The notes below the pieces were generated by a model. The model saw only the letters and a program-made list of their open reading frames with translations. It was not told the DNA's origin and ran no database searches. A program made the translations under genes and the position numbers. This document shows positions 3,678 through 62,772 of a DNA stretch of 64,000 nucleotides, piece by piece (within the stretch, counting starts at the first letter, position 1; every line of letters starts with the position of its first letter). The DNA lies in NCBI RefSeq assembly GCF_004010195.1, contig NC_057731.1, positions 13,106,145 to 13,170,144 on the forward strand. Direction: 5' to 3'. The DNA is from Chiloscyllium plagiosum (taxonomy: Eukaryota).

Positions 3678-4959
3678 TGACACAGAGAAGAATGCATTGA
3701 AAGTGAAGCTTGATTGGCTTCAATGCCACTTCACGTGGACTCCACAGACAGAAACCATCGACTGGGATGATATGAAACAAAGATTAGAAGATTCAATACA
3801 GGCTGGTGTAAAATATCAAGCCAGGTCTTACAACCATCTCGCCTTTATAAACTGTCTGCAAGGAAACTGTGAAGAGGCAATTCAGAATTTAAAGGAAGCT
3901 AAAAGGATTCTGAGGGAGAGACATGGAGATGGATTTGAGAAAAGAATCTTGGTCACCTATGGAAACTATGTCTGGGTTTATTATCACATGGACCAACTGG
4001 AGGAGGCTCAGTCCTACCTCGACAAGCTGGAGACAGTCTGTAAACTATTTCCTGAAGCCTCTCGGTTTACAGCAATGATACCTGAGCTTTATGGAGAGAA
4101 GGGCTGGTCACTGTTGACTACAGCCGCTCAATATTATGAAGAGGCAAAGAAATGTTTTACAAAGGCCCTGGAGAAAGATCCTGACAACATTGAGTGGAAT
4201 GTTGGCTATGCCACTGCTCTGTATCGTCTGGAAGGATTTTCTGGAACCCCAGGGGGTCACAAATCCACTGAATCAATAAAACAGTTTAGACGTGTGCTGG
4301 AGCTAGATCCTGATCATGCTGAAGCCATGGTGCTGTTAGCTTTAAAACTACAGGAATTCAATCAAGAGGAGGAAGCATCCACATTAGTTGAGCGAGCATT
4401 GCAGAGGTCCCGACATCATCCATATGTACGTCGATACGCAGCAAAGTTTTACAGAAAAGCCAGTAAAATAGACAAATCATTAAAGCTGCTGAGGGAATCA
4501 TTGGCAAATACCCCAAATTCTGCCTTCCTGTACCATCAAATAGGTCTATGTTACAAAAGCCAGCTATTGCATATGATCAAAGCTTCAAACAGAAATAACC
4601 CTCACAATTCTACCAATGGAAAGAAAATGGACTTGATTAATCAATGCAAGTACTATTTTAAAAAAGCAGTTAAGCTCAGGCAATCATTTATTAATCCACA
4701 ACTGGATCTTGCAGTAATATATTCAATAAATGAAGAGCTTCAAGAAGCAGAGAAGATCTACAGTGATCTACTGGAACTGGAAGATATTCGTCCCGAGAAT
4801 AAGCAAGCAATACGTTTACAGGTTGGGTTATTCGAGCTGAATGTAAAAAAATCCAAACCAAACGCTATCATCCACTTTGAGGAAGTAATGCAAGTGAACT
4901 ATGATTCACTGGAAAAGGAAAGGTGTCGAAAAATCTTGGAGCGGATAGCAAAACACTGA
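3678..4959 (+). CDS. IFIT5-like: IFIT copy A exon 2; IFIT5-like TPR protein, ~428 aa spliced, lacking the final TPR helices
   Basis: Acceptor ttttcttgcAG ends at 3677. IFIT motifs LQCHFTW, LVTYGNYVWVYYHM, GEKGW, RYAAKFYR and FLYHQIGLCY are present. The TGA stop lies ~45 codons earlier than in copies C/D, and relic coding sequence follows it. Confidence 0.9.
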
Positions 4960-5812
4960 TTTCGCTGGAATCCCAGAGACAGTAAGGCCTTTGGTCTTCT
5001 CGGGTTCAAGTATATGGGAAGCATCGTGACGCTATTGAATACCATGAAAAATGCCTTGGAGTTTGATGCTGGCAAGGAAGAATATCTAAGTGCTCTTTGT
5101 GAATTATGTCTTTCCATCGAGGTCAGAAATAACCATTCCGGTGAAATACGTCCTTCCATTTAATTTAGCAGTGACCTTTCCAGATAAAACTAAAGATGAA
5201 TTAATACTCTATTCTTCTGGTACCCACTTTACTTTCATTCTCCTTAGAACTTTCTAATTAAGGATTTTACTCGTGTTTTTAGTTTTCAAGCAATAATCTG
5301 GCTGCAATTATTCTAAACACTCACGCTTTGTTCATGAAATGCTGACCACACTGGATTCACCCAGTAGCATTTGTTTCTTTATTCTTATACATTTTGTTGT
5401 GTGTGGAAAGAGACAAAATAAAGGGGTTTGGAGGAATTTGAATATATCGCACTGATCAAACAGTCTCAAAAGATATATATAAAATATAGAAATTTTATAA
5501 AACAATTAGAAATAGTAGCTGGGCCGGATTTTAAATCCAGTTAAGTTTTGGAGCAGTGTTAATGTAAAAATTCTCTATTTGCTGCGGGTATCAGGCTCTG
5601 GGTAATAACCAAGCCTCATTCTTTGTGTCACCAGTCTATGTTCAGTACGTGCAGCATGCAGAGAGATATTTTAGTGGGATTTATAGGTCAATCTACAGTT
5701 TACTAGTCCTGATTAGTTTCAAGATCCATTCAACATACAAAGCCTTCCAAAACTGATTAAGTTTCACTAACCAAGTACAAAAAAATTACACTTACAAAAA
5801 ACAGGTTTGTAA

Positions 5813-6404
5813 GGTAACGATACTATCGCTTAAAGAGGTGTATTTTGTCCTGTTTTCTTTAATAAAGAGAGACTGAGGTAGACATGCTGAGTGGACTGCT
5901 CCAAGCCAGTAAACAATAGAAACAGCATAAATGGATGGAGTCAGGCTCCCACAGAACAAGGATTTCAGTTTTAGCTTTCAGCAGTTGCTGGAGTCTTGAG
6001 GCTGGATGTGGAAGCTGTTATTCCTCTCTATGTTACAATGAAAAGCTGGGGTTCTCTCTTAAGTGAGAATTGCAGGTGGGATAATCTGTTTTACTGAATT
6101 TGCCTTTGCCAAGGCTGTGTATATGCGATGTTACTATATTGGAACAGTTGCTGTTTGTATTTACATAATCGATTATTTTGTTAAGTTTTCCAATAGAGTT
6201 AAGTTTTGACCAATTCTTCTGTCTTTTGCTTGTATTTTAACTATATGGTATGAATAAAGTATGTTTCGCTTAAAGCCTAGTAGTGTGACCAATTGAATTA
6301 CATCTGGAACACAGCACCTTACATATGCCTTTAAATATGATAAAAGATAGGGTGCAAGTTAATTATTTAATATATTTGCAGGAGATTTTGTCCGGTCCAT
6401 AACT
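5813..6404 (+). mobile_element. Possible solo LTR
   Basis: ~590 bp with termini (G)GTAAC...CATAAC(T), resembling TG..CA ends. It has an internal AATAAA and near-4-bp flanks GTAA/ATAA. Both termini are imperfect. Confidence 0.3.
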
Positions 6405-7057
6405 ATAAGTTGATCCATTTTGGGATATGATCCCAACTGGAGACACTTGTTGACTGGTTACATGTCTCTTGTTCTATTGTGTTGACTGGAGTTCTCCTTC
6501 TGTCTTTGTTCTTTCTTGTGCACTGAACCATCTAGAATTATAATTTAATAACCTTGGTCAGCCATTTTGCCCTGTGTAAGGTCAGAGACATTCTGAACTC
6601 TAAGTAGTTTGCCAATGTATGGGTACTAGATGATCAATCTCAGATTACTTAAAATGTGTATACCAAATTCTCAGCTAGTTTCTTTGAAGATATAGGTCAC
6701 CTTATTGATATCACTTCCTATTGTCTCCTGATCAATTCATCATGTGCTATCCACTTTGTGAGATCATCCCTTTGGCAACAGGTTGTCTTTATCAATCCAC
6801 CAACATTTTCCACCTTTATTGATAAGTAGAACAATATGACTTGAGTATAGTGTGATTAACCATCACCCTAAATGATGCATCTAAAAACACTTCAAAACCT
6901 ATTAATATCATTTAACTCAAAGAACCAGATTTGATGACTCTACAATAACTGTAGCTTCCTAAAACAAACTAAAGCTCAAAATAACCATAAAACCTAATGT
7001 TTAAAGGTTTGTTGCATATTTTAAAGTTACAAAGCTAAGCCATCAAGTACATGGTCA

Positions 7058-7250
7058 GACATCACACGACACCAACAGGTTTATTTGAAATCACAAGCTT
7101 TCAAAGTGCTGCTAGGATCAGCTAATGAACGAGCTAATGTGACTTCTGATCTTGTCCATCCCAGTCCAAGCTGAAAATGTGTTGCTGGAAAAGCGCAGCA
7201 GGTCAAGCAGCATCTTCATCCCAGTCCAACACTGGCACCTCCATATCATC
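7058..7250. mobile_element. Decayed hairpin PLE derivative with a nested 47-bp PLE-end insertion
   Basis: Remnants of the CACACAACACC..CCCAGTCCAACAC family. The insert 7170-7216 is flanked by CATCCCAGTCCAA at 7157-7169 and 7217-7229. Confidence 0.7.
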
Positions 7251-8139
7251 AAGGAAAACATTGCTGGGTCTTTGTATCTTTTACCTTAAAGCATTCTCAC
7301 ATTTCTAACACAAGGGTTACATTAACATAAGTTATAAAAGCAGCAATAAATCCATTAATTCATGCCTTTATTATGGACTCAAGCCAAATAGTTATTTTTC
7401 CTTTGCAAAAATAGTTTTACAAATAACCAAAGTTAAGCAGAGTCTAATTTATAATAACTCAGTCCCACAGCTATATAAAGAGGCTTAGCTGAAAAGGTTG
7501 TTACCTGATTGGGTGAAAAGTAATAAAGTAACAGGGATAGCACACCAAAAGGGGACATAAAGACTGGAAGAAAAGTCATAGGTCACAGGCAAAGCCTGCA
7601 AGTCACTCACAGGAACAGAAAGTTGGAAATGCATCATCTGGAAGCAACTGCACAATAACTTCACAAAATGAATGGGACCATACCAGGCGTAAGTTACTGC
7701 CACTTTTTTTTTACAGGAATGGAGTATGCAACACATTTTTTGAGGCCCCACAAGGGGCAAAGGTGCAACCATGTCATCGCTCATTAACCAATGATAACTA
7801 TCTGCCCTCAATTCTCACTTCATCCAACGGTCAGGAATTGCCAAAGAACGCAAAGAACAAATTATGAGCATTCAAAGAATTATATTTTCCCCACTGACAC
7901 CTTGTAATGTGAACTTGACCAATCTTATTGTGACAAGGCACATTAAGCAAAACCTCATGTCCCCAACAATTGGCAGCAGCAATTTATAACAAGTACTGGA
8001 AAACTGCTGCCATATTCTCTCGCAGAAAACTAATTCTACAAGGACATAAGCTGTGAAGTGGAAGGGGGTTGGTGATGTGGAGAATGTTTCATGGGATAGA
8101 TTCCTACTCCCAACAGAATTGAAATGGTTTCCTTGTCAC

Positions 8140-8495
8140 AAAATCACAGAAAAGTGGAGAAAGTGGTCACTTGGCCTACTGAATCCACGCTGACCATCCA
8201 AACAGCATGCCATACAAACTCACCTCTGCACTCCCCCACTCTATCCCTCAAGATCCCAGATTTTCCATGGCCAACCCATCTAGCTTGCACATCCCTGAAC
8301 ACTATGGGAAATTTTGCATGGTTTAGCTACTTAACCTGCACATCTTGGACTGTGGGAAGAAACCGGAGCACCCAGTGGAATCCCATGCAGACACGGAAGA
8401 AGGTGCAAACTCCAGCAAACATCCGACAAAGGGTAGTATCAAACATGGATTCCTGGTGCTTTAAGGCAGCAATGCAAACCACTAAGCCACCACGT
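8140..8495 (-). mobile_element. HE1/V-SINE-like SINE (older copy)
   Basis: Same family as 755-1100, more diverged. Confidence 0.8.
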
Positions 8496-8689
8496 CCACC
8501 ATGTATTTGGAAGCACACCATAACTCAGAGATCCTTATCGTAGCATGACTGTGACCTCCTTGGGAACATTATTGCAACACTATGTGAGATCAGAACATTA
8601 AACTTGGTTGTTAAGGATCTGAGGGCTCAGGCATCCTTCAAAGTCAATCACTGTGACATTTCCCTCAGATTCTCTGCCATTGTGGCAGG

Positions 8690-8820
8690 CCATAGTGGAA
8701 TAGACCTCCTGAAGACAAGATTTCAATACCTGGGCCATCCTTGCAGGGCCCAACAGGAGAGCTCAGACAGGGTGTCTGACATCATTGTGATATGCAGCGC
8801 ATTTCACAATTTGAACTGAC
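8690..8820 (+). mobile_element. Harbinger (HARBI1-like DDE) transposase C-terminal relic
   Basis: GIDLLKTRFQYLGH...SSDRVSDIIVICSAFHNL resembles the Harbinger GLLKxRFRCL...xxIIxxCCxLHN motif. Confidence 0.55.
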
Positions 8821-9020
8821 AAAGAATGGATGTCTTGGACATGGGTGGAATGGGAGAGCAAGAGCAATCCACTGAGGATTTGAATGACACTAAGCCTCAG
8901 GGCATCACTCAGAAGAGGTATCTAAGAGGGAAAGACAGAGGAAGACAAAGAAATAATTCAGAATGTCTGAGAGGCCAGAGATAACCTTATTGCTACCTGC
9001 TTTGAGACTGCCTGAACTGG

Positions 9021-10830
9021 GTAAAAACAATGACTGCAGATGCTGGATACCAGATTCTGGATTAGTGGTGCTGGAAAAGCACAGCAGTTCAGGTAGCATC
9101 CAAGGAGCAGTAAAATCGACGTTTCGGGCAAAAGCCCTTCATCAGGAATACAGACAGAGTGCCTGAAGGGTGGAGAGATAAATGAGAGGAGGGTGGGGAT
9201 GGGGAGAATGTAGCATAGAGTTCAATAGGTGAGGTGGGGAGGAGGTTGGAATGGATCGGTGGAAAAGAAGATAGGCAGGTAGGACAAGTCATGGGGACAG
9301 TGCTGAGCTGGAAGTTTGGAACTGGGATGAGGTGGGGGAAGGGGAAATGAGGAAACTGTTGAAGTCCACATTGATGCCCTGGGGTTGAAGTGTTCCGAGG
9401 CGGAAGATGAGGCGTTCTTCCTCCAGGCTTCTGGTGGTGTGGGAGCGGCGGTGAAGGAAGCCCAGGACTTCCGTGTCCTCGGCTGAGTGGGAGGGGGAGT
9501 TGAAATGTTGGGCCACGGGGCGCTGTGGTTGATTGGTGTGGGCATCCCAGAGATGTTCCCTAAAGCGCTCTGCTAGGAGGCGTCCAGTCTCCCCAATGTA
9601 GAGGAGACTGCATCAGGAGCAACGGATACATTAAATGATATTGGTGGATGTGCAGGTAAAACTTTGATGGATGTGAAAGGCTCCTTTAGGGCCTTGGTTG
9701 GAGGTGAGGGAGGAGGTGTGGGCGCAGGTTTTACAGTTCCTGCGGTGGCAGGGGAAGGTGCCAGGATGGGAGGGTGGGTTGTAGGGGCGCACGGACCTGA
9801 CCAGGTAGTCACGGAAGGCGGAAAGGGGTGGGGAGGGAAATATATCCCTGGTGGTGGGGTCTGTTTGGAGGTAACGGAAATGTCGGTGGATGATTTCGTT
9901 TATGAGAAGGTTGGTAGGGTGGAAGGTGAGCACCAGGGGGGTTCTGTCCTTGTTACAGTTGGAGGGGTGGGGTCTGAGGGTGAAGGTGCGGGATGTGGAT
10001 GAGATGCATTGGAGGGCATCTTTAACCACGTGGGAAGGGAAATTGCAGTCTCTAAAGAAGGAGGCCAGCTGGTGTGTTCTGTGGTGGAACTGGTCCTCCT
10101 GGGAGCAGATACGGCAGAGACGGAGGAATTGGAAATATGGGATGGCATTTTTGCAGGAGGCAGGGTGAGAAGAGGTGTAATCCAGATAGCTGTGGGGATC
10201 GGTGGGTTTGTAAAAAATGTCAGTGTCAAGTCGGTCGTCACTGATGGAGATGGAGAGGTCCAGGAAAGGGAGGGAGGTGTCAGAGATGGTCCAGGTAAAT
10301 TTAATGTCAGGGTGGAATGTGTTAGTGATGTTGATGAATTGCTCAACCTCCTTGCGGGAGCACGAGGTGGTGCCAATGCAGTTATCAATGTATCGGAGGA
10401 AGAAGTGGGGAATGGTGCCGGTGTAATTACGGAAGATGGACTGTTATACGTAGCAAACAAAGAGGCAGGCATAGCTGGGGCCCATACAGGTGCCCATGGC
10501 CACCCCTTTGGTCTGGAGGAAGTGGGAGGATTCGAAGGAGAAATTGTTAAGTGTGAGGACCAGTTCAGCCAAACAAATGAGAGTGTCGGTGGAAGGGTAC
10601 TGTTGGGGATGTTGGGAGAGGAAGAAATGGAGGGCTTGGAGGCCCTGGTCATGGTGAATGGAGATGAAGAGGGACTGGATATCCATGGTGAAGATGAGGC
10701 ATTGGGGGCTGGGGAAACGGAAGTCTTGGAGGAGGTGGAGGGTGTGGGTGGTGTCTCGAACGTATGTGGGGAGTTCCTGGACTGGGGGGAATAGGACAGT
10801 GTCCTGGACTAGGGGGGATAGGACAGTGTG
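9021..10830 (-). mobile_element. 5'-truncated, frameshifted Penelope-like retroelement (Neptune-like): RT, Cys linker and GIY-YIG endonuclease, with a hammerhead-bearing 3' end
   Basis: Minus-strand fragments include MDIQSLFISI, NNFSF..FLQTKGVAMGTCMGPSYA, RYIDN, PLVLTFHP, GTFPCHRRNCKTC, CTSTNII, YIGETGRLLAERFREH, HFNSPSHS and LGTLQPQGINVDF. Confidence 0.9.
9114..9149 (-). ncRNA. Minimal type-I hammerhead ribozyme motif (PLE terminal repeat)
   Basis: Minus strand reads ATTC-CTGATGA-A-GGGC TTTT GCCC-GAAA-C-GTC-GATT: catalytic core, stem II and a palindromic ACGT stem III. Confidence 0.7.
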
Positions 10831-11437
10831 CTGGGTTCAAACCTTTGATACACATTTAGTTACTCACCTGGCAGGCAGACCCTTATTTAGTATAAAGGAC
10901 ACAATTTTGTGTCTTGTAGATTAAATGTTGCATAATCTATGTTACCTTCTTATGTTCTACCTTCAGTGAGAACGTGTCAATCGTTATGCATAAATCTGCT
11001 CCACATCACCACGAAAGCAGAAGAGACAGTAAAATCCGGCATAAAAATGATGAATGTGTCAAAGCATCTATGTGGATGTGACATGAGTGATCTGTAGACC
11101 AATCCCTCACAATAGCCACCGGATTGAACTGAATCCTGAGGAATCTCCTTTTTGGGGAATTCCTGATCTACACCCCTTCAATGCTCAGAGAGGACATAGA
11201 CTGTACTGTTTGCCTTGAAATGCATGAACACGCAGGACCTTGGAAACCCGAAGGTCCTGGCACTGTCAATTTCTCCATCTCAGTCTCCATGCAAGTAGTC
11301 AAGTGACGCACTCATCATCTCACTCACAAAATAATGAGGTGAGAAGCGTGTGCTCGCATGAGATAACTCACCCCAAATCAAAACAGAAATGACATTACAA
11401 ACCCAGTTTGTCCCCTTTTTTTTAACTTTCAAGGAAT

Positions 11438-11768
11438 CAAAGAATTCCTACAGTGTAGAAACAGGCCCTTCAGCCCAACAAGTCAATGCTGACCCTCTGA
11501 AGGGTAACCCACTCATTCCCCTAACTTATTCTCCCATATTTACCCCTGAATAATGCACCTAACTTACACATCCATGAACACTATGGTCTATTTAGCACAG
11601 TTAATTCACCTAACCTGCACATCTTTGGACCATGGGAGGACACCAGAACGCTCAGAGGAAACCCACAAAGACATAGGGAGAACGTGCAAACTCCACACAG
11701 ACTAGAATTGAACCCGGGTCCCTGACGCTGTGAGGCACTAGTACAAACCACTGAGCCACCATGCCTCC
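11438..11768 (-). mobile_element. HE1/V-SINE-like SINE
   Basis: A box TGGCTCAGTGG, B box GGTTCAATTC and V-SINE-like core. Confidence 0.88.
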
Positions 11769-15870: not shown

Positions 15871-16624
15871 GTGGGATCCTCAATAACATCCAGAGCCTGG
15901 GGTTTGGTGATATTCATGAGCACTGACTGTGATGGTAACTCTATCTAGAGCAGGGGGGCACTGCTTTTTCTTTTCCCACTGAAGCAGCCCTGAAGAGGAA
16001 CAGGACATCAGGAGGATGAAGGGTTGTACATTCATTTGACCAGGAAGTCTGGTCCCAACTTTGAAGGGTTAAGGCTCCAGAATCTTGATGTTTTCCCCTT
16101 TCTAATCAGTGGAACCCTGCCAAAATTTCCATCAATTCACTAGCCTGGCTTTAAACATGCTTGGCCTGATTTTTACAGCAAAGGGTATGTTTTGAACTGC
16201 CCTCATAGCACAAAATCAATCTGGTGTCATATACATTATTGTTATTGTATTAGCTTCTCAAATTCAGAATAATGATTGCATTTGTATCCCATTCACTCAA
16301 CTTAAATTCCAACCTGTATTTTGTTTCTCCTCACACACAACTAAATCTCTAAAGCTGCAGAAATCAAATAATGTTTGGTTAGATCGCATGCGAGCAATAT
16401 TCCACTAAGAAGCAACAGGACTTGGAATATTTTTAACTGGAATGATTATTTATGCGTTATATATGCATGCATAATATCTTAATTTTAAAGGAAGTGCTTG
16501 CAGAATAGAAATGAAAAGGTCCCCAGCGGAAGTTCTGAGAAAATATTCACCCCTTTCAAATATGTTTGCTTGGCAAGTCATTGTTGATCTCAGTAGAAAG
16601 GTGTAATTCAAAGACAGCAGATCT

Positions 16625-18038
16625 TTATTCTTCATTGAAAAGCTCTTGCAGTTTGAGCTTCACAAAGCATGTCATAAGTCCAGGCTCCTCCCCATCTAGC
16701 AGGTACATGGCCCCAAGAATGCACAAAGCCTTTATGTCGCCTGGGTTATTTCGAAGTCGTCTCTTTGCGATCTTTTCCAAGCTGGTGCGGCAGAGTTTTT
16801 GTTGTTTTGAGTTTCTTTTGATAGAAAATCCTTCCAGAAAATGTGTGACGGCATTCGGTTCTGATCTTTTCCAATACAGTTCAAATTTCCCAGCCTTGTA
16901 AGTGACATACTGCTTATCTTCTGGACAACCATATTCCAATTTCAGTAGGTCACTGTAGATCATTTCAGCCTCATGAATTTCTTCATTTACGATGAGGATA
17001 TCTGCAAGTTTCACCTTTGCTCCTGTAAACGATGGTTTGAGCGCAACTGCCTCACTGAAGTAGTGTCTGCATTGTTCAATCAAAGTGGCCTTCTCTTGAG
17101 AAGCAGGATCATCAGGCCCATTGCTGCATCGGACTGGGCCCAGTGCTTGTAGTTTGTCATTGTAACACTGACCTATTTGATGGTACAAAAATGATGAGTT
17201 TGGTGTAATTTTTAATGCTTTCTCTAACAGCTTGAAAGCATTTTCTACATCTCCTTCTTTCCTGTAAAACATTGCTGCATATCGAAGCACATATGGATGA
17301 CCAGGAGACTTCTGCAATGCTCGCTCAACTAATGTGGATGCTTCCCCCTCTTGACTTAACTCTTGTAGTTTTAAAGCTAACAGCACCATGGCTTCAGCAT
17401 GATCAGAATCTAGCTCCAGCACACGTCTAAACTGTTTCATTGATTCAGTAGATTTGTGACTCACTTGGGTACCTGAAACTCCTTCTAGACGGGACAGTGC
17501 AGTGGCATAGCCAACATTCCACTCAATGTTGTCAGGATCTTCCTCCAGGGCCTTTGTAAAACATTCCTTTGCCTCTCCATAATATTGAGCGGCTGTAGTC
17601 AACAGTGACCAGCCCTTCTCCCCGTAAACCTCAGGTATCATTGCTGTAAACCGAGAGGCTTCAGGAAATAGTTTACAGACTGTCTCCAGCTTGTCGAGGT
17701 AGGACTGAGCCTCCTCCAGTCAGTCCATGTGATAATAAACCCAGGCAGAGTTTCCATAGGTGACCAAGATCCTTTTCTCAAATTCATCTCCATGTCTCTC
17801 CCTCAGAATCCTTTCAGCTTCCTTTAAATTCTGAATTGCCTCTTCACAGTTTCCTTGCAGACAGTTTATAAAGGTGAGATGGTTGTAAGACCTGGCTTGA
17901 TATTTCACACCAAGCAGTATTGAATCTTCTAATTTGTGTTTCATATCACCCAAGTCAATGGTTTCTTTCTGTCGAGTCCACGTGAAGTGACATTGAAGCT
18001 GATCGAGATTCACTTTCAACAAATTTTCCCGTGTGTCA
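16625..18038 (-). pseudogene. IFIT5-like: IFIT copy B exon 2; IFIT5-like, interrupted by an in-frame TGA at 17720-17722 (pseudogene or null allele)
   Basis: Acceptor AG at 18040-18039; the spliced start is MGDTRENLLK. ORFs 17720-18022 and 16625-17641 share one frame. ATG GAC TGA CTG aligns to ATG GAC CGA CTG in copies C/D. The terminal TAA aligns to the TAT (Tyr) of NEEY. Confidence 0.85.
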
Positions 18039-18714
18039 CTGCAAGAAAATAAAATCTTTTACAATCTCTATTTCTGAAGCTGCAGCTTTTCCATTTTATT
18101 TTGGTCATTTGAATTAATTCTTAGCTTGGCCTTTGGTAGTATTAGATGACAGGTTAAAGATATTTATGAATGACATAATATTATATCATTCTAAAGGATT
18201 TCATTTATTCTCACGATTGGACTCTGCTGGTGTCTCTCAATATTGAAACCACAAATGATTATTAGTTAATATTACTTGTCTAATGTATCCTGTTTATAAA
18301 CCTTCAAAATCGGCAAGATTTTAACTCAATCAAAAGCCATGTAGCTACACCACTGCATCTGAAACCTTTCCAGTCAGGCAGTCCTCTTTAGATTTGCCAT
18401 CTTTTGTGTATCTTGACCAGAGGTTTCTTTTTAAACTAACCTTATCATGGCCACTCTTTTGAAGGCGTCGCAGTCTAAAATAGTTTGATCAGGGCAAACA
18501 CCAATTGAAGGGCCATGTTTGTCATTATGGAATGCAACAGTGCCCATAATTCTCCTCCGTCTTTGTTGGTCTCTCATCGGTACTTTTGAAAACAAAAGCC
18601 ATCCAGCTATGTTTTTAAACAATGCAATGATGAAGCTTCTGGGCGATGTCTAGTGGAGGCATTTGTTAGCTGATAGATACATCAAAGGACATCTCTTCCC
18701 AGTCCAGAGAATGC

Positions 18715-18992
18715 TTCACTCAGCAGCCCCTCGTCCCAGTTGTCCCTTCCCCATCACTCACTCACTCACTCAGCAGCCCCTCGTCCCAGTTATCCCTTTC
18801 CCATCACTCACTCACTCACTCACTCACCAGCTCCTCGTTCCAGTTATACCTTCCCCATCACTCACTCACTCACTCACTCAACCAACAGCTCCTCGTCCCA
18901 GTTATGCCTTCCCCATCACTCACTCACTCACTCAGCAGCCCCTCGTCCCAGTTACCCCTTCCCCATCACTTACTCACTCACTCACTCAGCAG
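18715..18992 (+). repeat. Minisatellite, ~5 units of 48-58 bp containing (TCAC)n
   Basis: Unit CAGCAGCCCCTCGTCCCAGTTATCCCTTCCCCATCACTCACTCACT repeats at ~18721, 18771, 18827, 18885 and 18933. Confidence 0.95.
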
Positions 18993-19982
18993 TACCACCT
19001 TCCTTAATGCCAAAGTATACCCACTCCTTTGTACCTTTTGTAGCACAACTCCAGCTGGCTGGTAGCCTTGGGGAGGGAGGCCTTGCCTAACCAGCCGTCT
19101 GCTGATCTGCCGATAAATCAGGGTGCCCCCTCTCCAGCCTGAACAGTTTTTACCCAATGAGTGCTCCTCTCACAGCACCTGCTAGGCTGGTACCCGAGCT
19201 GTCATTCACCCTCCTGCTGCTCACTGCTCCTCCTCTTAAAAGCTCTTTCGCTTCCCACTGGTGCTGCTAATAGACACAACAGCCTCTCCATCACCACCTG
19301 GCATACGATCACACACTCAAAGTGCAAGACTCCAATCTCATGTTCCATGAATACAATCAGACCATCATCCTGACCAGTATCAAGGAGGAGATAATCAGTG
19401 CATAACACATCCAGCTGGCCCAATGAATGCTCCCTTTAACCTGCACCTCCTCCTGCAGCCCTGCTTTCTCCAAAGTGTTTCCTTCTTGATGGAGAAGCTA
19501 GCGTATCTATTAAGTTACACCATTCACACGTATGGGAAACACAAACCTATTTAAAGTCAGAGTGCAACAGACAGCTCCATTTTTGCAGGAGTGAGGCCTG
19601 TTTCCTGCAGTATGGTTTTGCTGGGTGAAGGTTCTGGAACTCCCTCCTAAATGGTGTTATGGGTGTATCTACACCAAATAAACTGATGGTTCAAGGTGGC
19701 AGCCCACCCCCATCTTGTTAAGAGCCATTAGAGGTGTACAATAAATGCTAGCCCAACCAGGGAATCTCACATTGTCTCTATTTTATGTCTCGGCGGAAAG
19801 CCAGCGCCTCAGACAGGGTTGAACTCCCTCAGTACTACATTAAGAGAAGGACAGGATTGTGTGATCAAATCATTGGAATATGATTCGAGCCCACATCACA
19901 ATGACTCAGAGACAAGAGGGAGAGCACTGAGCTCCAGCTGTCTATACTGTACACGGTATGGATACATGAAGATCTCACTTAC

Positions 19983-19987
19983 CCCAT
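19983..19987 (-). CDS. IFIT5-like: IFIT copy B exon 1 coding part (ATG GG)
   Basis: Minus strand caccATGGG|GTAAGT, homologous to exon 1 of copy A; phase 2. Confidence 0.8.
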
Positions 19988-43189: not shown

Positions 43190-44074
43190 TGGAATGGACT
43201 GCAAAAGATCAGGATGAAGGCTCTTCGCCATTAACATGAAGGGAACGACTGGGGGAGAATATTCTGGAAGTGTCCACCCACTTATTGCCCAGGACTGGTT
43301 GAGGTATCCATGGTCTGGTGGATGGGTGGTGATGCTCCAGGCCAGTCCCAAGGATTGAGCAGCTTAGAGATGCTGAGATCAATTTATCATGGGAGAGCTA
43401 CTGAAGTAGCTCACATCAATGGATTCCAACGAAGGGTCTGAGGAATATGGTAAACAGGTAAAATGGAGATTCGTCAAGCAGTTTGTGCTTGTTGTGTGTT
43501 TCTATGTGAGTGAACATAATTGGAACAATAGGCACCTATAACATTATGCACACCCAGGTTCTAGCACCTCTCTCCCTGGAGATAAACTGGGCTGGTTGTT
43601 TTGGTTGAACGGTCTCAGCTGCTAGTTTCACAGTCAGGGAAGAAAGCACATTGAGCGCAGTTCTCTCTCAACTCACTGCTGGACGTTTTGGTGGAGCACG
43701 AACTTGCCATTTGATCAGCATAATGAGGTAAAGAAATTATTGAAATTCTACCTGTTTTAGACAGGTAAATTTGTAGGTTATTGAAAAAGGAGCTCATTTT
43801 CAGAATTATTTTGCTATAAATGACAAAGGAACTAATACACTTAAAGCAGGATTACTTGTCACAGTGAGGCATACAGGTAAATGTTTACTGTTGCACTGGA
43901 ACTAGTGAGTGTCAGAAGAAATAAGAGTCAAAAGGCAATTTATAGTGTTTTGTCAGGTACTCTTTTAAGGAAAACCAACCTTGAATGTCTGAATGAAAAT
44001 TCAAAAACACACAAATTAAACTTTAATTAATCTCCACACTGTCATAATGTTGAATCAAATATTTTGTAAATGTT
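43190..44074 (+). repeat. Direct duplicate of ~56997-57900 (promoter, exon 1 and intron start of IFIT copies C and D)
   Basis: Colinear shared blocks: GCAAAAGATCAGGAT, GGAATATGGTAAACAGGTAAAATGGAGATT, TTGCCATTTGATCA.CATAATGAGGTAAA and CTGTCATAATGTTGA. A further block at 41490-41680 matches 56860-57040. Confidence 0.9.
43723..43727 (+). CDS. IFIT5-like: IFIT copy C probable exon 1 coding part (ATG AG)
   Basis: ataATGAG|GTAAAG is conserved with copy D. Phase 2 fits the acceptor ending at 51802, giving MSATQKDALK. Confidence 0.65.
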
Positions 44075-48103: not shown

Positions 48104-48189
48104 TGGGACTGCAGGCAGTCCCCAAACAAGGTGGAGCCTTGGGGTCTGGGAGTAGGCTTTGAGAAGCTGGTGTTGGGGAGGAAACATAA

Positions 48190-48577: not shown

Positions 48578-48579
48578 AG

Positions 48580-48985: not shown

Positions 48986-49437
48986 NNNNNNNNNNNNNNN
49001 NNNNNNNNNNNNNNNNNNNNNNNNNNNNNNNNNNNNNNNNNNNNNNNNNNNNNNNNNNNNNNNNNNNNNNNNNNNNNNNNNNNNNNNNNNNNNNNNNNNN
49101 NNNNNNNNNNNNNNNNNNNNNNNNNNNNNNNNNNNNNNNNNNNNNNNNNNNNNNNNNNNNNNNNNNNNNNNNNNNNNNNNNNNNNNNNNNNNNNNNNNNN
49201 NNNNNNNNNNNNNNNNNNNNNNNNNNNNNNNNNNNNNNNNNNNNNNNNNNNNNNNNNNNNNNNNNNNNNNNNNNNNNNNNNNNNNNNNNNNNNNNNNNNN
49301 NNNNNNNNNNNNNNNNNNNNNNNNNNNNNNNNNNNNNNNNNNNNNNNNNNNNNNNNNNNNNNNNNNNNNNNNNNNNNNNNNNNNNNNNNNNNNNNNNNNN
49401 NNNNNNNNNNNNNNNNNNNNNNNNNNNNNNNNNNNNN

Positions 49438-50257
49438 ATTTAAATTGATTGGCTAAATTCGGGCTTGTTGTCTTGGCAGCAAAACAAAGCTTATACCTGG
49501 GTTACAAACCTCACAGCTCTTGTGTTTTCTCATTGATTTTCTATCAGGAACGCCTTCTCCTTCGAATTCTTGTGTTAGGAATTTGGACGGTGTGCCGCAA
49601 TACCATGGTAAATAGATGGTGCTTACTCTAAGAGCTGAGAGCTAATATCTCTTGGGAAGATGGCAGTTGGTTCTCCTATTAATTTTCAAATGCCCTCTTC
49701 TTTTATACTTTTGATGATCTATCAACATTTTTACAATTGGATTGGTCCTTGGTTGTCAAAACCATCAGATTTAAATTTAATAGGTTTTTGTTAGTTCAGG
49801 GTCTGATTTAAATTGATTGGCTAAATTCGGACTTGTTGTCTTGACAGCAAAACAAAGCTTATACCTGGATTACAAACCTCACAGCTCTTGTGTTTTCTCA
49901 TTGATTTTCTATCAGGAACGCCTTCTCCTTCGAATTCTTGTGTTAGGAATTTGGACGGTGTGCCGCAATACCATGGTAAATAGATGGTGCTTACTCTAAG
50001 AGCTGAGAGCTAATATCTCTTGGGAAGATGGCAGTTGGTTCTCCTATTAATTTTCAAATGCCCTCTTCTTTTATACTTTTGATGATCTATCAACATTTTT
50101 ACAATTGGATTGGTCCTTGGTTGTCAAAACCATCAGATTTAAATTTAATAGGTTTTTGTTAGTTCAGGGTCTGATTTAAATTGATTGGCTAAATTCGGAC
50201 TTGTTGTCTTGACAGCAAAACAAAGCTTATACCTGGATTACAAACCTCACAGCTCTT
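49438..50257 (-). repeat. 368-bp tandem repeat (at least 2.2 copies), probably a multiplied U3 region of an LTR starting TGTAAAAT at 50383
   Basis: Near-identical units start at 49438, 49806 and 50174. Each full unit has CCAAT boxes and TATAAAAG on the minus strand. Confidence 0.85.
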
Positions 50258-51802: not shown

Positions 51803-53255
51803 CGCCACACAGAAGGATGCGTTGAAAGTGAATCTCGATCAGCTCCAATGTCACTTCACATGGACTCCGAAGAAAAAAATCATCGACTTGGATGATATGA
51901 AACAAAGATTAGAAGATACAATACAGACAAGTGTGAAACCTCAAGCCCGGTTTTACAATCACTTTGCTTTTATAAACTGTCAGCAAGGAAAATATGAAGA
52001 GGCAATTCAGAATTTAAAGGAAGCTGAAAGGATTCTGAGGGAGACACATGGAGATGAATTTGAGAAAAGAATCTTGGTCACCTATGGAAACTATGTCTGG
52101 GTTTATTATCACATGGACCGACTGGAGGAGGCTCAGTCCTACCTCGACAAGCTGGAGACAGTCTGTAAACTATTTCCTGAAGCCTCTCGGTTTACAGCAA
52201 TGATACCTGAGGTTTACGGGGAGAAGGGTTTGTCACTGTTGAAATCTGCTGGCCAATATTATGAAGAGGCAAAGGAATGTTTTAAAAAGGCTCTAGAGAA
52301 GGATCCTGACAACATTGAGTGGAATGTTGGCTATGCCACTGTTCTGTATCGTCTGGAAGCGTTTTCTGGAACCCCTGAGAGTCATGAACCCACTGAATCA
52401 ATGAAACAGTTTAGACGTGTGCTGGAGCTAGATCCTGATCATGCTGAAGCCATGGTGTTGTTAGCTTTAAAACTACAAGAGTTAAGTCAAGAGGGGGAAG
52501 CATCCACATTAGTTGAACGAGCATTGCAGAAGTCTCCTGATCTCCCACACGTGCTTCGATATGCAGCAAAGTTTTACAGAATCAAAGGAGATGTTGAAAA
52601 AGCTTTGAAAGTGTTGAAGACAGCAATGGAAATTACCCCCAACTCTACCTTTTTACACCATCAAATCGGTTTGTGTTACAGAAAGAAACTAATGCCATTG
52701 CTCAAACATCCACTCAGCAAAAACCCTAAAGATCCTGCTTTTCAACAGAAAGTTGAACTGATCAAACTTTGCAAGTCTCATTTTAAAAATGCTTTCAAGC
52801 CTCGACCATTAACCTTTATTAGGGCACAACTGGATTTTGCAGGAATATGTTCACTAAATGAAGAGTTTCCTGAAGCAGAAAAGATCTACAACAATCTCCT
52901 GAAACTGAAAGATATCCGTCCAGAGAATAGGCAAGCAATATGTTTACAAGCTGGATTATTTCAACTGTTCCAGAAAAGAGCAGAATCAAAAGCCATCGCC
53001 CATTTTCTGGAAGGAATGAAAGTCAATTACAATTCCATAGAAAGAAAAAAATGCCGTGAAAATTTGGAGAGGACCGCAACAGGACGGCTTCACAGGAATC
53101 CACGAGATAGCGAGGCCCTTGGTGCTCTTGGCTTCCTGCATCAACTGGATGGGAAGAAGCGCAAAGCTGTCGAATACTTTGAAAAGGCCTTGCAATTTGA
53201 TCAAGGCAATGAAGAATATCTCAGTGCCCTTTGTGAATTACGTCTTTCTATCTAG
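51803..53255 (+). CDS. IFIT5-like: IFIT copy C exon 2; intact IFIT5-like protein, ~485 aa spliced
   Basis: Acceptor ttctcctgcAG ends at 51802; uninterrupted ORF. Motifs CHFTW, VLRYAAKFYR and FLHHQIGLCYR. The C-terminus ALCELRLSI matches the end of mammalian IFIT5 as I recall it. Confidence 0.95.
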
Positions 53256-55560: not shown

Positions 55561-56472
55561 CATCACCTGGCCCTGTGTATTGGTAGGATTAAAAATGATA
55601 TGGTCAAACCAAATCTTTAAGGGTTTATTATTAAGAGTTCATTGAACATAACAATGAGCAATTGAAAATCACTGGTTTAGTATGAGACAGTTGTTTCAGC
55701 TGTTGGGAAACCATGTGACACAACCACTTGGAGGATGGTTGTCTGAGAAAGTACTGAAAGCATGCAGAATGGTAGCAACATCAAGGACTAGCTAGCACTC
55801 GTTGGACACCACTTCGGACAGAAATTGCAACTGTGTCAGGAACCCTGAATTCTTCAGCCGTTCCAAAACGGGGTCCCTAATGGGCAGAAGGCACTGAGAT
55901 TCATTGTTAGATATCTTGAGCATGTCTAAAGTAGATTAATAGATCTACTCATTAGTTTGCATATGTTTCTAATCTACTAAAGATATCATGTAGATCGTTA
56001 AGATGTCTTTACAACTTAATATACACTTGTTGCTTAATATATTTACTGACCAATAAATATATATATCTAATAAAGGTGTTAATTTGGATCACCTGACCTG
56101 GAGAGTTATTTTTGTGACCTCCCACCGAATTCACAATACACCCTGCAGCTCTATTTTATCTACTTAGTTCTTAATTTGATTTTTAACAGTTTCCAACTGG
56201 TCTTTTAGTTTGCAATATGTAAACATTTCTCCCATTTACCTTCAATCTGAAAGTAACCTATGAAAGTCCAATTATTTCCTGCAATGTCACTCTTTCCTTT
56301 CTGCTGCCCCCGCCCCAATCCTGGGCTTCAACTTATCCTATAAAAAGACCTTACAAAATGCAAAACAAATCTCATATTTTGTACCAAAATCCCAAGCTGC
56401 TTCCAAATTCTCAGAACTATACAGTGCTGAGCTTACTGGTCATTACTGCGATTTGTGTAAGTGTTCTTCTCC

Positions 56473-56782
56473 GGGACAGTGCAGCAGCTCAGTGGTTAGC
56501 ACTGCTGCCTCACAGCAACGGGTTTGATTCCAACCTCGTCAGTGTGGAGTTTGCACATTCACCCTGTGGGGTTCCTTCGGGTGCTCCGTTTTCCTTTCAC
56601 AGTCCAAAGACGTGCAGGTTGGGTGGATTGGCCTGTAATGTCCAGGGATGTGCAGGCTGGGTGAATTAGACATGGGGGATGCAGGGTTACAGGGACAGAC
56701 TGGGCCTAGGTGGGATGCTCTTCAGAGGGTAGGTGTGAACTCAATGGGCTGAATGGCCTGCTCCCACACTGTAGGGATTCTA
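56473..56782 (+). mobile_element. HE1/V-SINE-like SINE
   Basis: GCTCAGTGGTTAGCACTGCTGCCTCACAGC head, core, and GGGATTCTATG tail. Confidence 0.85.
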
Positions 56783-57443
56783 TGCTTCTGCACTGCATTT
56801 CTTGCCCAAAATGTTAAATCTGTGCCCCCCTCAGCGCTCATTGTATCATTACGTCTACCTTGAAACCTGTCACAAGCTTGTGCACCTCCATTAAATAGCT
56901 GCTCAATCTCCTTTGCTCTAAGTAAAATTGCCCCAACTCTACAACCTGATTTACTCCAACAAACGACTATTGTATAAAATCTGAAGCCACCATTAAGGAA
57001 TGAAGTGCAAAAGATCAGGATCAAGGCTCTTTGCCATTAGCATGATGGGAAAGGCTTGGGGGGAATGTTCTAGAAGTGTCCAGTCCCTTAATGCCCGGGA
57101 GTGGGGCAAAATGTCAGTGCTCAGGTGGGAGGGTGGTGCTGCCCTAGTTAAAGGGACTGAGCAGCTTAGAGTTTCCAACTCCAGGTGTTGGAGATGCTGA
57201 GGTCAATTCATCATGGGAGAGCTATTAAAGCATCTCACATCAGGGGATTCCAACAAAGGGTCTAAGGAATATGGTAAACAGGTAAAATGGAGATTCATCA
57301 AACAAGTTGCGCTTGTGTGTTTCTGTGTGAGTGCACAGGTCTGTGTGGATAATTGGAACAATAGGAACCTATGATATTATACACGTCCATATTCTAGCAC
57401 CTCTTTCCCTGGACATAAGCTGTTGTAGTTACATTGATGAAAT

Positions 57444-57456
57444 AGTTTCAGTTTCT
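57444..57456 (+). promoter_or_regulatory. Consensus ISRE of IFIT copy D
   Basis: AGTTTCAGTTTCT matches AGTTTCNNTTTC, ~115 bp upstream of the exon-1 ATG. Confidence 0.8.
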
Positions 57457-57571
57457 AGTTGCATAGTCACGGAAGAAAACACCTGGAAATTGTGGCACAT
57501 CGAGCATTACTTCCAATCATCTGACCAGTGAAGGTTTTGCTGTAGCAGGAATTTGCCATTTGATCAACATA

Positions 57572-57576
57572 ATGAG
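57572..57576 (+). CDS. IFIT5-like: IFIT copy D exon 1 coding part (ATG AG)
   Basis: ataATGAG|GTAAAA downstream of the ISRE. Phase 2 fits the acceptor ending at 61337, giving MSDTEKDLLK. Confidence 0.75.
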
Positions 57577-58844
57577 GTAAAAATCATTGAAATTCTATCT
57601 GCTTTCGACAGTTAGACACATAGACTATTGAACAAGGAGTTTGCTTTTACAAATACTTCGGTATAAATTACAAAGGAGTTGAAACCCTTAAAGCAGAGTC
57701 ATTTGTCACAGTGAAGCGTACAGGTAAGTGTTTACTGCTGCACGGGAGGAACTGCAAGGCAAAAGGCCGATCTATTTATAGTATTCCATCAGGTAATCTT
57801 TTAAGTAGAGATCGACCTTAATTTCCACTCAGATTTTGCAGAAAATACAAAGCGAAGCTTCAACTGTCATAATGTTGAGTAAAACATTCTACACGTGTTG
57901 TCAAGCAGATATGATCGGTCAATCCCAATCCCAAATCCCTGTTCTTCATCATTTCAATTTTACCCCAAATGTGTCTAGTTGAAACCTCCTCATTCTTTTG
58001 ATTCCTGGCTGTTGACCAGTTTGCCAATTTGATCAGCTCCAAGATGGAGAACGCCACAATGAAATAATGTGATGTACCTGCTATTAATTTCCACAAAACT
58101 ACAACTTCCCAGGGCAGATTCTCCAGGAATCTTTAGCCCACCTCTCTTGAAAAATTGGGTGTTTGAGGAGGGCAGAAAGATGTGTGGTTTAGTAAGATAT
58201 TATGCTTCAGGACATTGGAACGAGCTAAGGGGAACGTTGAAAGTGAGTACTGATGGAAGGGTTCAACATAACAAGATGGAGGACTAAGGCAGCTCAGGGA
58301 GGGAGGTATAGGAAGGACATTGTAGGAGCAGCTTGAGGGCGAAAGGACCATTGTGGAATGGGGGTCAGGTAGTTATATTTTGAGCAGGAAAGGGACAGGA
58401 AATCTGGAACTGATAAATTGTTTCTGAACATCTTGAATATCTGTATCATTTGAAGGGCCTTGATTAAATCACTGTTTCAAAAGTAAATGAATTCAAACCA
58501 AGTTAATTTAACCTAAGCAGTTAATTTAACCTTTTAAGGGTTGGTATGCTTCTCATCGGTTTGTGCTGTAACCCCTCTCAAACCAATTTATCTTTCCTGG
58601 GTCTTGCCATGATTTTAATGCATTAGCATTATTGAATCTTCATGTTTCATGAGTAGAATGCTTGGGGCACACATCCCAACAAACTTGTGTTGGAGACAGG
58701 AAGCAAAGTAGGAAGTTTCTATTTCAGCTTATTCTGATTCCAAGTTGACAGTGTTACAAATCAAAAGCCAGAGTGAAACCCAGCTTGATAGACCACAACT
58801 TGTATTCTTCTTCCCTTTCCTATGGAGGTCAGATACTGAAAATA

Positions 58845-59132
58845 TTAGATTAGATTCCCTACAGTATGGAAACAGGCCCTTCAGCCCAACAAGTCCACAC
58901 TGACCCTCCGAAGAGCAACCTACCCAGACCCCACATTTACCCCTGACACTATGACCAATTCATCTGGCCTGCACATCTTTGGATTGTGGGAGGAAACCAG
59001 AGCACCCGGAGAAAACCCAGACAGACACGGGGAGAATGCGCAAACTCCACACAGTCACCCAAGGTGGGAATTGAACCTGGGTCCCTGGCGCTATGAGGCA
59101 GCAGTGCTAACCACTGAGCCACCATGCTGCCC
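58845..59132 (-). mobile_element. HE1/V-SINE-like SINE
   Basis: Same family as 755-1100, with a (TCTAA)n tail. Confidence 0.9.
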
Positions 59133-59661
59133 AAAATATTGTCAAGAGATGGTCAGTGTACTTTTAACAAAAGCAAATAAACGTTTACTACACAAAAGGT
59201 AAAAAAAAACCACATCGTATATTAAACTATATAAAAATCATTGGAATGATTTCATTACAAAAATCAGAAAGAAAGATTCATCTCTTTTACCCCAGCAATA
59301 ACTTGATAAACATGCATACCTCATTGAGTGTTTCATTTTTGTCTCCATGATAAAGTCTCTCACTCGGCTGCCACAGCTAGAGTTGGTTTCCTTTTGGCAA
59401 ATTTCTGCTGCTCATTCATTCAATGCTATTTTCTTCAGTTCATGTCCCCCTCTGTGACAAAATAAATATCTAACTCAAATTACCAATTTATTTTTCATAT
59501 GAAGCACCAAGAAGTTCATTTCAACTTTCTATTGTTCAGTCATTTCTATTGAAGCCTATAAGAAGCTGGGAGAATCCAGCCATTGTTATTTCACTAGCAT
59601 TCTCAATCTGACTACCCTCACCAGGAGGGAGGCAAACATGACAGCTGTCAGTTGTGTTAGA

Positions 59662-60015
59662 CAGAATCAGAGAAAGCCCAGAATGTGGAAGCAGGCCATT
59701 CAGCCCATCACGTCAACAGCGACCCTCTGAAGAACATCCCACCCAAACCCACACCCAATACCCTATCCCCTTAACCCCACATTTATTATGACTAATACAC
59801 CTAACCTACACATCCTTGAACAGTATAGGAATTTAGCATGGCCAATCCACCTACCTACACATCTTTGGTTTGTGGAAGGAAACCAGGGCATCCGGAGGAA
59901 ATCCATGCAGACACTGGGAAAATGCGCAAATTCCACAAAGGCAGTCACCCGAGGGTGCAATCAAACCTGGGTCTCTGGCGCTGTGAGCAACAGGGCTAAC
60001 CACCAAGCCACTGTG
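59662..60015 (-). mobile_element. HE1/V-SINE-like SINE (older)
   Basis: Same family, diverged. Confidence 0.8.
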
Positions 60016-60210
60016 AAAGCTTGCAGATCACACCAGCAGATTTCCGGAGGAAGCAGGACGTAAAGATATCCAGATGATGACTTTGACAACCTCTGGCCAC
60101 CAGATAAAGGCTGCAGAGGTCAGCAATGACTAACAGAATTTTTCCCAGCCTCCTCAGGAGGCTTAGTGCCATGGACAGAAAGCTGAGCCATCTTCTTGTG
60201 AAATCTTCTA

Positions 60211-60330
60211 GAGGAGAAAGTGAGGTCTGCAGATGCTGGAGATCAGAGCTGAAAATGTGTTGCTGGAAAAGCGCAGCAGGTCAGGCAGCATCCAGGGAAC
60301 AGGAGAATCGACGTTTCGGGCCTAAGCCCT
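60211..60330 (-). mobile_element. Family B PLE 3'-end insertion truncated inside the hammerhead
   Basis: Near-identical to 39969-40088 and flanked by CTAGAGGA. It stops after stem II, so CTGANGA is missing. Confidence 0.85.
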
Positions 60331-61337
60331 AGAGGATTCTGCTTCAAGCCATCTAGAATGCTGTCTTTAACTCCTCGGTCCCGTTTAGTGACATGTAGAT
60401 CAGAAGCAGGCAGCTCCTGCTCCTGTTGTCCCTGACACTGTTGTTACTGCCCCTCTTGTTGTTCATCAGAGGACCAGGATAAAGCTGCTTAAATTGTTGG
60501 TCTTCTTCAGTGAAGGGAGACAGCATGACAGTGCAGATCAAAGTGAGAAATGCCCAAAGGAGCAGACATGTTGGCAAAGTGGTGGATGTCACCTAACAAT
60601 TAGTGAAGGCGAACTCCCAGCACAAATCCTGGTGTACATAATGTATTGTGCACACAAGTAAACATCATAGGCAATGTTTTATATACATAAGTATACATCC
60701 TAGGCAAAGAGGCAATTGTCTTGAATCAGTATTTGCGGTTTTTATAAAGCATCGGGTTCACCACCCTGTTCATCTTCACTGTGATCTTGCTTTATTGACC
60801 CCAGGGATCTTCCACAGTTTGAGGAACCAGGCACAGGCACTTATAGTCACAATGCAGGATTAACTCTGCAGACAGCTAACCTTTAGCATAGTTTAATTGT
60901 TCTCCGGCCTGTCTCAATGGGTTATCTCACACCTTTCCAGAAGAACAGGTCTCTGGTAATTTCTCAGCCTGCTGGCATATTGATTTTCTCCTGCACGCAC
61001 TGATCTATCCCAAGGTCGATCAGGTTAAAACATTACCTTTGGAGCCCCCTTACCTGAAGTCACCATGAGAAACTTGCTAGTCCACTTGAAGCAATTTTTA
61101 GATAGGGCCTGCTGAGATTCTACGATAAGACCAAGAAGGTTCAGTGGAACACATTATTCAGGAGAGAATCCAAAAATGTTTATGTTGGAATTAATGGTGG
61201 GACATTGGTAAGTATCTTAGCTGTATCAAATGTTTATCAAAGATGTGTGTTAGACCAAATTCCAAGAATAAATATGGAAAATTGTAAAAGAAATGAATCA
61301 CAGGCTCACTTTTAGGAGTGCTTTTATTTTCTTGCAG

Positions 61338-62772
61338 TGACACAGAGAAGGATTTGTTGAAAGTGAGTCTCAATCAGCTTCAATGTCACTTCACGTGGAC
61401 TCCACAGAAAGAAGCCATCGACTTGGATGATATGAAACAAAGATTAGAAGATTCAATACAACTTGATGTGAAATATCAAGCCAGGTCTTACAACCATCTC
61501 GCCTTTATAAACTGTCTGCAAGGAAACTGTGAAGAGGCAATTCAGAATTTAAAGGAAGCTGAAAGGATTCTGAGGGAGAGACATGGAGATGAATTTGAGA
61601 AAAGGATCTTGGTCACCTATGGAAACTATGTCTGGGTTTATTATCACATGGACCGACTGGAGGAGGCTCAGTCCTACCTCGACAAGCTGGAGACAGTCTG
61701 TAAACTATTTCCTGAAGCCTCTCGGTTTACAGCAATGATACCTGAGGTTTACGGGGAGAAGGGCTGGACACTGTTGACTACAGCCGCTCAATATTATGGA
61801 GAGGCAAAGGAATGTTTTACAAAGGCCCTGGAGGAAGATCCTGACAACATTGAGTGGAATGTTGGCTATGCCACTGCACTGTCCCGTCTAGAAGGATTTT
61901 CAGGTACCCAAGTGAGTCACAAATCTACTGAATCAATGAAACAGTTTAGACGTGTGCTGGAGCTAGATCCTGATCATGCTGAAGCCATGGTGCAGTTAGC
62001 TTTAAAACTGCAAGAGTTCAATCAAAAGGAGGAAGCATCCACATTAGTTGAGCGAGCGTTGCAGAAGTCCCCTGATCTCCCATATGTGCTTCGATATGCA
62101 GCAAAGTTTTTGAGAAGAGAAGGAGATGTGGAAAAATCGTTGAAGCTGTTGAACAGAGGGCTTGAAATTACCCCGAACTCTGCCTTCCTGTACCATCAAA
62201 TAGGTTTGTGTTACAAAAACAAATTGCTTCAACTGAACAAATATCCAGGCTGCAGAAACCCTCACAGACAACAGAAAGCTGAATTAATCACAAAATGCAA
62301 GTACTATTTTGAAAAGGCTTTTGAGCTCCGCCCACTAACATTTATTAATGCACAGCTAGATTTCGCTGTGATTTGTTCATTAAATAAGGAGTATCATGAA
62401 GCTGAGGTGACCTACAACAATCTACTGAAATTGGAAAATATTCATCCAGAAAATAAGCAGGCGATACGTCTTCAGGCTGGGTTATTTGAACTGTATTCCA
62501 AAAGATCAGAATCAAATGCCATCATCCATTTTCTGGAAGGACTCAAAATCAAATATAACTCAAATGAACAGAAAAGATGTCGGAGCCAGCTAGAGAGGAT
62601 AGTAGAAAGACAACTTCTCAGGAATCCAAGAGACAGCAAAGCCCTTGGTCTGCAGGGGTTGCTTTTTCAGTTGAATGGGAAGAAATGCAAGGCTATTGAA
62701 TACTTTGAGAAAGCCTTGGAGGTTGATTCTGACAATGAAGAATATCAAAGTGCTCTTTGTGAATTAAAATAA
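61338..62772 (+). CDS. IFIT5-like: IFIT copy D exon 2; intact IFIT5-like protein, ~479 aa spliced
   Basis: Acceptor ttttcttgcAG ends at 61337. Uninterrupted ORF with all IFIT motifs, ending EEYQSALCELK. Confidence 0.95.

Follow-up and report, generated by a model that had tools for sequence, protein, structure and literature searches.

The closest described system to the locus presented here is the mammalian gene pair IFIT1/IFIT1B, whose 5' part is homogenised within species whereas the 3' part retains orthology, with at least 13 events (Daugherty et al. 2016, PMC4887208). In cat the pair shows 97% identity over the 5' part and 63% over the 3' part, specificity is under C-terminal control, and the mammalian break falls within the pivot, around nt 907-948 (PMC4887208). 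The same study places the origin of IFIT1/1B in mammals, with separate duplications of the IFITs in fish. For vertebrates in general, Liu et al. 2013 (PMC3688568) described eight IFITs in elephant shark and read their grouping by lineage as expansion; the terms conversion, recombination and concerted never appear in the main text of that paper. Here we analyse the IFIT cluster of the bamboo shark Chiloscyllium plagiosum, contained in a stretch of 64,000 nucleotides that we call the window (contig NC_057731.1, positions 13,106,145 to 13,170,144). It carries four copies of IFIT exon 2, A (+), B (-), C (+) and D (+), in which a shared 5' stretch sits on divergent 3' halves, and we consider it highly probable that recurrent non-allelic gene conversion between paralogs explains this arrangement.

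Shared 5' stretch and divergent 3' halves in the window

IFIT genes have a tiny coding first exon, a single large second exon and a promoter resembling the interferon-stimulated response element (ISRE). The layout of the exons is the same in the window, where the splice is shown for B, and the encoded proteins of about 480 aa consist of TPRs throughout and are closest to IFIT1/2/3/5. An initial annotation, made from the letters alone, had reported four IFIT copies; all four are present where it placed them, and tblastn detected no fifth copy in the 64-kb window. Within exon-2 codons 63-245 the pairwise DNA identity among A-D is 91.6-97.4%, vs 60.4-73.9% in codons 261-425, and synonymous divergence (dS) is 0.024-0.198 in the former part vs 0.74-1.10 in the latter. 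This contrast is seen in 6/6 pairs, so that dS is not uniform along exon 2, and four-fold sites differ between the halves in all six pairs as well (Fisher p 0.0014-0.018). Breakpoints calculated from all sites fall at codons 243-268; silent sites alone gave a weaker result, with breakpoints scattered from codon 55 to 333. A GENECONV-like run test reached an uncorrected p<0.05 in four of the six pairs (B-D 1e-4, A-B 0.008, A-D 0.015, B-C 0.038). The universally shared core, approximately codons 76-146 (TPR2 and linker), is narrower than the tract of codons 63-245, and C and D are identical over 158 bp of it (C positions 52071-52228).

The near-identity claimed for the N-terminal part can be kept for about codons 63-140, where a 216-nt example differs at only 2-7 of 216 positions in all six pairs, but not for codons 151-245, where pairs with C reach dS values of 0.21-0.31. 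The strong divergence downstream of the tract is borne out by the identity and dS values above. Variants described as private to B and D are reflected in 12 listed informative sites between codons 42 and 196, all of which group AC|BD, followed by four at 227-244 that group AD|BC. We could also confirm that the intron 3' ends are alike over about 17-20 nt only, and that promoter and exon 1 pair A with B (82-85%) and C with D (73-77%). Pairwise 3' dN/dS among A-D is 0.28-0.45 and gives no sign of positive or diversifying selection, so that the diversified antiviral repertoire proposed in the initial annotation is hypothetical. Two of the four window copies are damaged, which the initial annotation had passed over: B by a nonsense codon 106, A by a truncation and a frameshift. 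The features are as follows.

1413..1417, +: coding part of IFIT-A exon 1 (ATG + 2 nt); record P0073 begins MSD, which fits the splice
3678..4959, +: IFIT-A exon 2, cut short by TGA at codon 427 (4957-4959)
3865..4413, +: homogenised stretch of A (codons 63-245), with the universal core at 3904-4116
16625..18038, -: IFIT-B exon 2, spliced and transcribed; codon 106 (17722-17720) is a nonsense codon
17303..17851, -: homogenised stretch of B, with its core at 17812-17600
19983..19987, -: coding part of IFIT-B exon 1, matched by spliced loose ends at 18039 in the public runs X4, X9 and X15
43723..43727, +: candidate first exon for C, a paralogue of the D candidate
51803..53255, +: IFIT-C exon 2, intact, 100% to the C. 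plagiosum record P0001
51990..52538, +: homogenised stretch of C, with its core at 52029-52241
57572..57576, +: candidate first exon for D
61338..62772, +: IFIT-D exon 2, intact
61525..62073, +: homogenised stretch of D, with its core at 61564-61776

Putative ISRE-like motifs lie about 40 and 90 nt 5' of IFIT-A exon 1, 5' of IFIT-B exon 1 and about 126 nt 5' of the candidate exon 1 of D. No such match was found 5' of the candidate exon 1 of C, and record P0001 has a first exon other than this candidate.

In A (window 3678-5120) the stop at codon 427 is followed by a frameshift and the helices after about residue 430 are lost; traces of the usual C-terminal end can still be read in a different frame. 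The 3' half of A forms a long branch in the tree, and no orthologue was found among the 45 matches listed (best non-self 3'-half matches 53-55%) by a word search that also missed D. For B, an intact orthologue of 472 aa exists in H. ocellatum (P0125, 91% in the 3' half), and the shorter C-terminal end of B is common to its clade and is not damage. B and D have no synonymous difference in codons 63-150, yet B lies inverted relative to D at a distance of 44 kb and still has a promoter, an intron, N-terminal residues and a 3' half of its own; hence a tract with two ends is needed. At about 150-200 B is D-type, with residues present in the orthologue of D and absent from that of B, and at about 227-231 it is C-type. 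The same D-then-C order is found in P0123, a record from outside the window with a D-type front up to about residue 218 on a C 3' half. P0123 may have been donor or recipient for B, and it is either a natural chimera or a mis-join. B is spliced and transcribed in spite of its nonsense codon, and its transcript would likely escape nonsense-mediated decay, the stop being in the last exon. The stop allele was seen in none of the listed contigs of the runs X1, X9 and X15, an absence that carries no weight, as such contigs drop rare variants.

Cores sort by host, 3' halves by orthologous group

Across sharks we found that the 3' halves form orthologous groups older than the carpet-shark family split, and that the core sorts by host. 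Orthologues of IFIT-C in C. punctatum, H. ocellatum, R. typus (whale shark) and S. tigrinum (zebra shark) are 87-96% identical in the 3' half; that of C shares 93% with its H. ocellatum counterpart and 87% with the one in whale shark, vs 47-65% with its neighbours in the window. D and P0037 of H. ocellatum are colinear, with identities of 92% in the core, 94% in the middle and 88% in the 3' half. Cluster look-ups supplied further carpet-shark orthologues, and the trees were built from 35 rows, 28 orectolobiform and 7 outgroup, with the core taken as codons 63-142; the fragment P0126 was left out, as was P0140, which comes from the gene already represented by P0051. In the core tree all 20 Hemiscylliidae rows stand on one branch (support 94, unstarred, two host changes), and the orthogroups C (approximately unbiased test, p-AU 0.006) and E (p-AU 0.001) are rejected. 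The 3' tree rejects the Hemiscylliidae host clade (p-AU 6e-6). Separate trees of the two parts, as suggested in the initial annotation, are thus discordant at the protein level, the core following the host and the 3' half the orthogroup, with two of three orthogroups rejected in the core.

Individual residues follow the same pattern. The change A98V is present in seven of eight C. plagiosum rows and in 0/20 rows from four related species, G83 in 7/8 C. plagiosum rows vs 2/20 others, and L91 in all 20 Hemiscylliidae rows vs none of the eight from Rhincodon and Stegostoma. In 16 species with at least three copies, the ratio of within-species to between-order distance is 0.28-0.34 in residue windows 76-135, vs 0.65-0.88 from 166 onwards and 0.70-0.77 in 1-75; among variable columns, 12 of 23 in 51-150 are host-sorted, vs 1 of 151 elsewhere. 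For these two analyses P0001 and P0073 (duplicates of window copies) and P0004 (779 aa) were left out, for the order statistics two further rows, and in the orthologue comparison P0065 was replaced by P0130. Breakpoints within species spread from 146 to 296 (10th-90th percentile, 245 pairs). Identity between orders is 77% in the core, 69% in the middle and 55% in the 3' half, and at least seven 3'-defined IFIT lineages exist among the sharks examined. The gene conversion proposed in the initial annotation is supported well beyond the window by the cross-species trees and host-sorted residues, but its constant N-terminal module has to be given up: in windows 76-135 residues differ by 19-28% between orders vs 6-9% within species, so that the module turns over by lineage.

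In stingrays, several IFIT records (P0004, P0034, P0055, P0064 and others) have 540-780 aa, and the families are large, with at least 16 members in Hemitrygon and at least 12 in Hypanus in the best 120 listed. Together this suggests extended or fused forms.

Mechanism and alternative explanations

Some points weigh against gene conversion as we read it. The run test was negative for A-C (0.73) and C-D (0.71), and no clear signal of GC-biased conversion was seen, third-position GC being 0.48-0.51 in codons 63-150, 0.35-0.40 in 151-245 and 0.35-0.41 in the 3' half. Homologues were ranked by their likeness to C and clustered at 90%; of 787 matches the best 120 were used, which come from some 20 shark and ray species with names; copies outside the window are known as proteins, so the cross-species evidence is protein sequence and not dS. 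Furthermore the core is short and most branches of its tree are weak, orthogroup F is not rejected there (p-AU 0.07), and the monophyly of the orthogroups in the 3' tree is circular, as that tree served to define them. Finally, conversion and double crossover look the same in sequence.

The position of the tract can be related to protein structure. D matches human IFIT5 (3zgq_A) with an E-value of 3e-106, and a model of C (predicted local distance difference test 86) resembles IFIT5 4hor_A with a template modelling score of 0.91 at 41% identity, showing the three TPR subdomains and the pivot helices in this one predicted structure. In the model, the core 76-146 runs from the last part of helix 4 through helices 5-6 (TPR2) and the linker into the first part of helix 7; the window breakpoints 243-268 lie in helices 12-14, ahead of the predicted pivot at 282-331. 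The first residue past the universal core, 147 (numbered from the D/IFIT5 alignment), is equivalent to K150 of IFIT5, the strongest triphosphate contact of that protein (PMC9677429). It is K in C and T in A, B and D, and its heterogeneity within species is 0.69 vs at most 0.09 at 137-143, 145 and 146. In 121 rows the equivalents of IFIT5 R186, R253, R260 and Q377 are nearly invariant, as in a protein of the IFIT5 type, and the three arginines among them make up most of the remaining basic contacts; unlike in IFIT5, the K150 equivalent is S, K, R or T, the T37 position is R in 110/121, E33 is replaced by D and Q41 mostly by S. The R at the T37 position presumably corresponds to R38 of IFIT1. 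From these substitutions the paralogs may differ in RNA preference.

Most probably, conversion repeatedly overwrites the 5' stretch of exon 2 in ancient paralogs. Tracts would most likely be seeded in the best-conserved 210 bp or so (codons 76-146), which would be similar enough to recombine, and would extend from there variably, in the window to codons 243-268, just short of the pivot helices. The 5' limit would be set by the unrelated introns and the 3' limit by accumulated divergence. Since the core stops at 146 and the next residue, 147, is paralog-specific, selection probably also preserves paralog-specific RNA-contact residues. The predicted outcome is a common scaffold with paralog-specific RNA-tunnel residues, pivot and subdomain III, and occasional chimeras. 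As a tentative proposal, the IFIT cluster of sharks and rays might be a constant/variable system in which conversion keeps a lineage-specific partner-binding scaffold (TPR2 and linker) and selection guards the RNA-reading residues from 147 onwards, reached separately in mammals and in cartilaginous fish; the independence would follow from IFIT1/1B being mammal-specific in the published view (PMC4887208).

It might also be that conversion is real and that selection mainly determines where the tracts lie, the core being a surface common to IFIT partners and matched within species. The same polarity in mammals, for which hetero-oligomerisation was suggested by Daugherty et al. (PMC4887208), the sharp edge at 146/147 and the swapping of helices 7-9 in IFIT2 (bioRxiv 152850) would fit such an interface, yet the universal core is mostly helices 4-6, N-terminal to helices 7-9. 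Moreover, likeness alone seems to predict the site of copying, because damaged B is the most converted copy and because C and P0123, whose 3' halves are similar, are identical over 261-425 too. We regard selection on an interface as possible, though rather unlikely, as the main determinant of tract position. Single unequal crossovers within the core could likewise shuffle front and back halves, and P0123 looks like a D front with a C back while copy number differs among species; in such events, however, promoter, intron and N-terminus would travel as well, whereas B retains its own and is inverted. Unequal crossover may add chimeras but leaves the internal tracts unexplained, and it is improbable as the source of the pattern.

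Even less probable is an assembly artefact, in which the assembler would have collapsed short reads of different paralogs, or polished one copy with those of another, to give false identity or chimeras. The published C. plagiosum assembly, from paired-end, mate-pair, single-tube long fragment read (stLFR) and Hi-C data, is short-read based (PMC7677710), four N gaps lie in the window, P0123 joins a front of D type to the 3' half of C, and the runs X1, X9 and X15 contain an exon-2 start of C type whose acceptor or first exon was not found in the window. Since the assembly is short-read based, copy B, and B only, was checked against contigs of four public runs (X1, X4, X9 and X15), of which X4, X9 and X15 were taken as RNA because their contigs splice, the run records carrying no RNA label. 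A single 2,554-nt contig of X4 (record 17) covers 16200-18039 without a gap and with two differences; the stop is part of it, and it is spliced to B exon 1. X4 and the genome assembly may come from one and the same animal, but they differ in molecule type and were assembled independently, and this spliced contig rules out mis-assembly for B, a concern raised in the initial annotation. In X9, from a different study, three short contigs at B-level depth (180-204) show 0-1 differences from the B tract. X1 has a contig of single-copy depth (10.8) across the boundary 17187-17336 without any difference, and within the tract the summed depth in this run climbs from 9-14 to 31-101, which several near-identical copies would produce. 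The Val98-type base predominates at 17745 in X1, X9 and X15. C and D are supported by their colinear orthologues, and the same pattern occurs in 15 other species. In X4 the B contig was the only IFIT contig at 93% or more.

The weakest alternative, that no recombination took place and the N-terminal half is just more constrained, or the copies are young with fast C-terminal halves, finds some support in the better conservation of that half between orders but is barely credible, as constraint neither lowers dS nor gives paralogs common host-specific residues, and as the 3' half of C is closer to other species than to its neighbours at a 3' dN/dS below 0.5.

Some further features of the window deserve mention. 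Positions 1-748 (+) and 20915-20176 (-), 5' of the A and B promoters, share 93% identity over 750 bp, more than the A/B core promoters do, and have no long open frame; this is possibly a separate conversion tract or a recently duplicated block. A 452-bp near-exact tandem duplicate (99.3%, window 49438-50257) directly follows the N gap 48986-49437 and is likely a scaffolding artefact. Overlapping open stretches of 270-302 aa at 9634-10808 (-) have the look of a retroelement remnant, which may be Penelope-like, and a tandem repeat lies in the B intron (window 18716-19003).

Comparison with known IFIT systems

In conclusion, the shark cluster provides a second, distant case of the 5'-converted, 3'-divergent IFIT pattern, which suggests that the polarity comes from protein architecture or the conservation profile rather than from a quirk of IFIT1/1B. 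What is new is conversion across a whole cluster and across elasmobranchs, with a narrower core and an earlier boundary than in mammals; the process itself is well known, and our functional reading is put forward as a hypothesis. No published conversion in cartilaginous-fish IFITs was found among the literature matches listed, most subscription journals being outside the coverage. PMC4887208 names no shark in its main text, and two of its supplement files contain none of five fish or amphibian terms, though these may list species otherwise. Whole-gene trees and labels such as 'IFIT1-like' or 'IFIT5-like' are misleading for shark IFITs, whereas the 3' halves recover old orthologous groups; C-terminal trees have been used for the same reason in PMC12543323. 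Near-isogenic natural pairs, D with the intact H. ocellatum orthologue of B and C with P0123, would permit testing of cap and triphosphate specificity part by part.

As in the cartilaginous fish of Liu et al., multi-gene IFIT sets group by lineage here, but part of this grouping comes from conversion among old paralogs. With mammalian IFIT1/IFIT1B the cluster shares homogenised silent sites in the 5' part, divergence in the 3' part (B-D 95.5% vs 65.2%) and a boundary near the pivot. It differs in that conversion acts on at least seven 3'-defined lineages instead of one gene pair, with an inverted partner in the cluster, and in that the breaks in the window precede the predicted pivot, whereas the mammalian break lies within it. 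While the mammalian pair is backed by functional data and the shark cluster by sequence, both combine a converted 5' part with a 3' part that has kept its own history.

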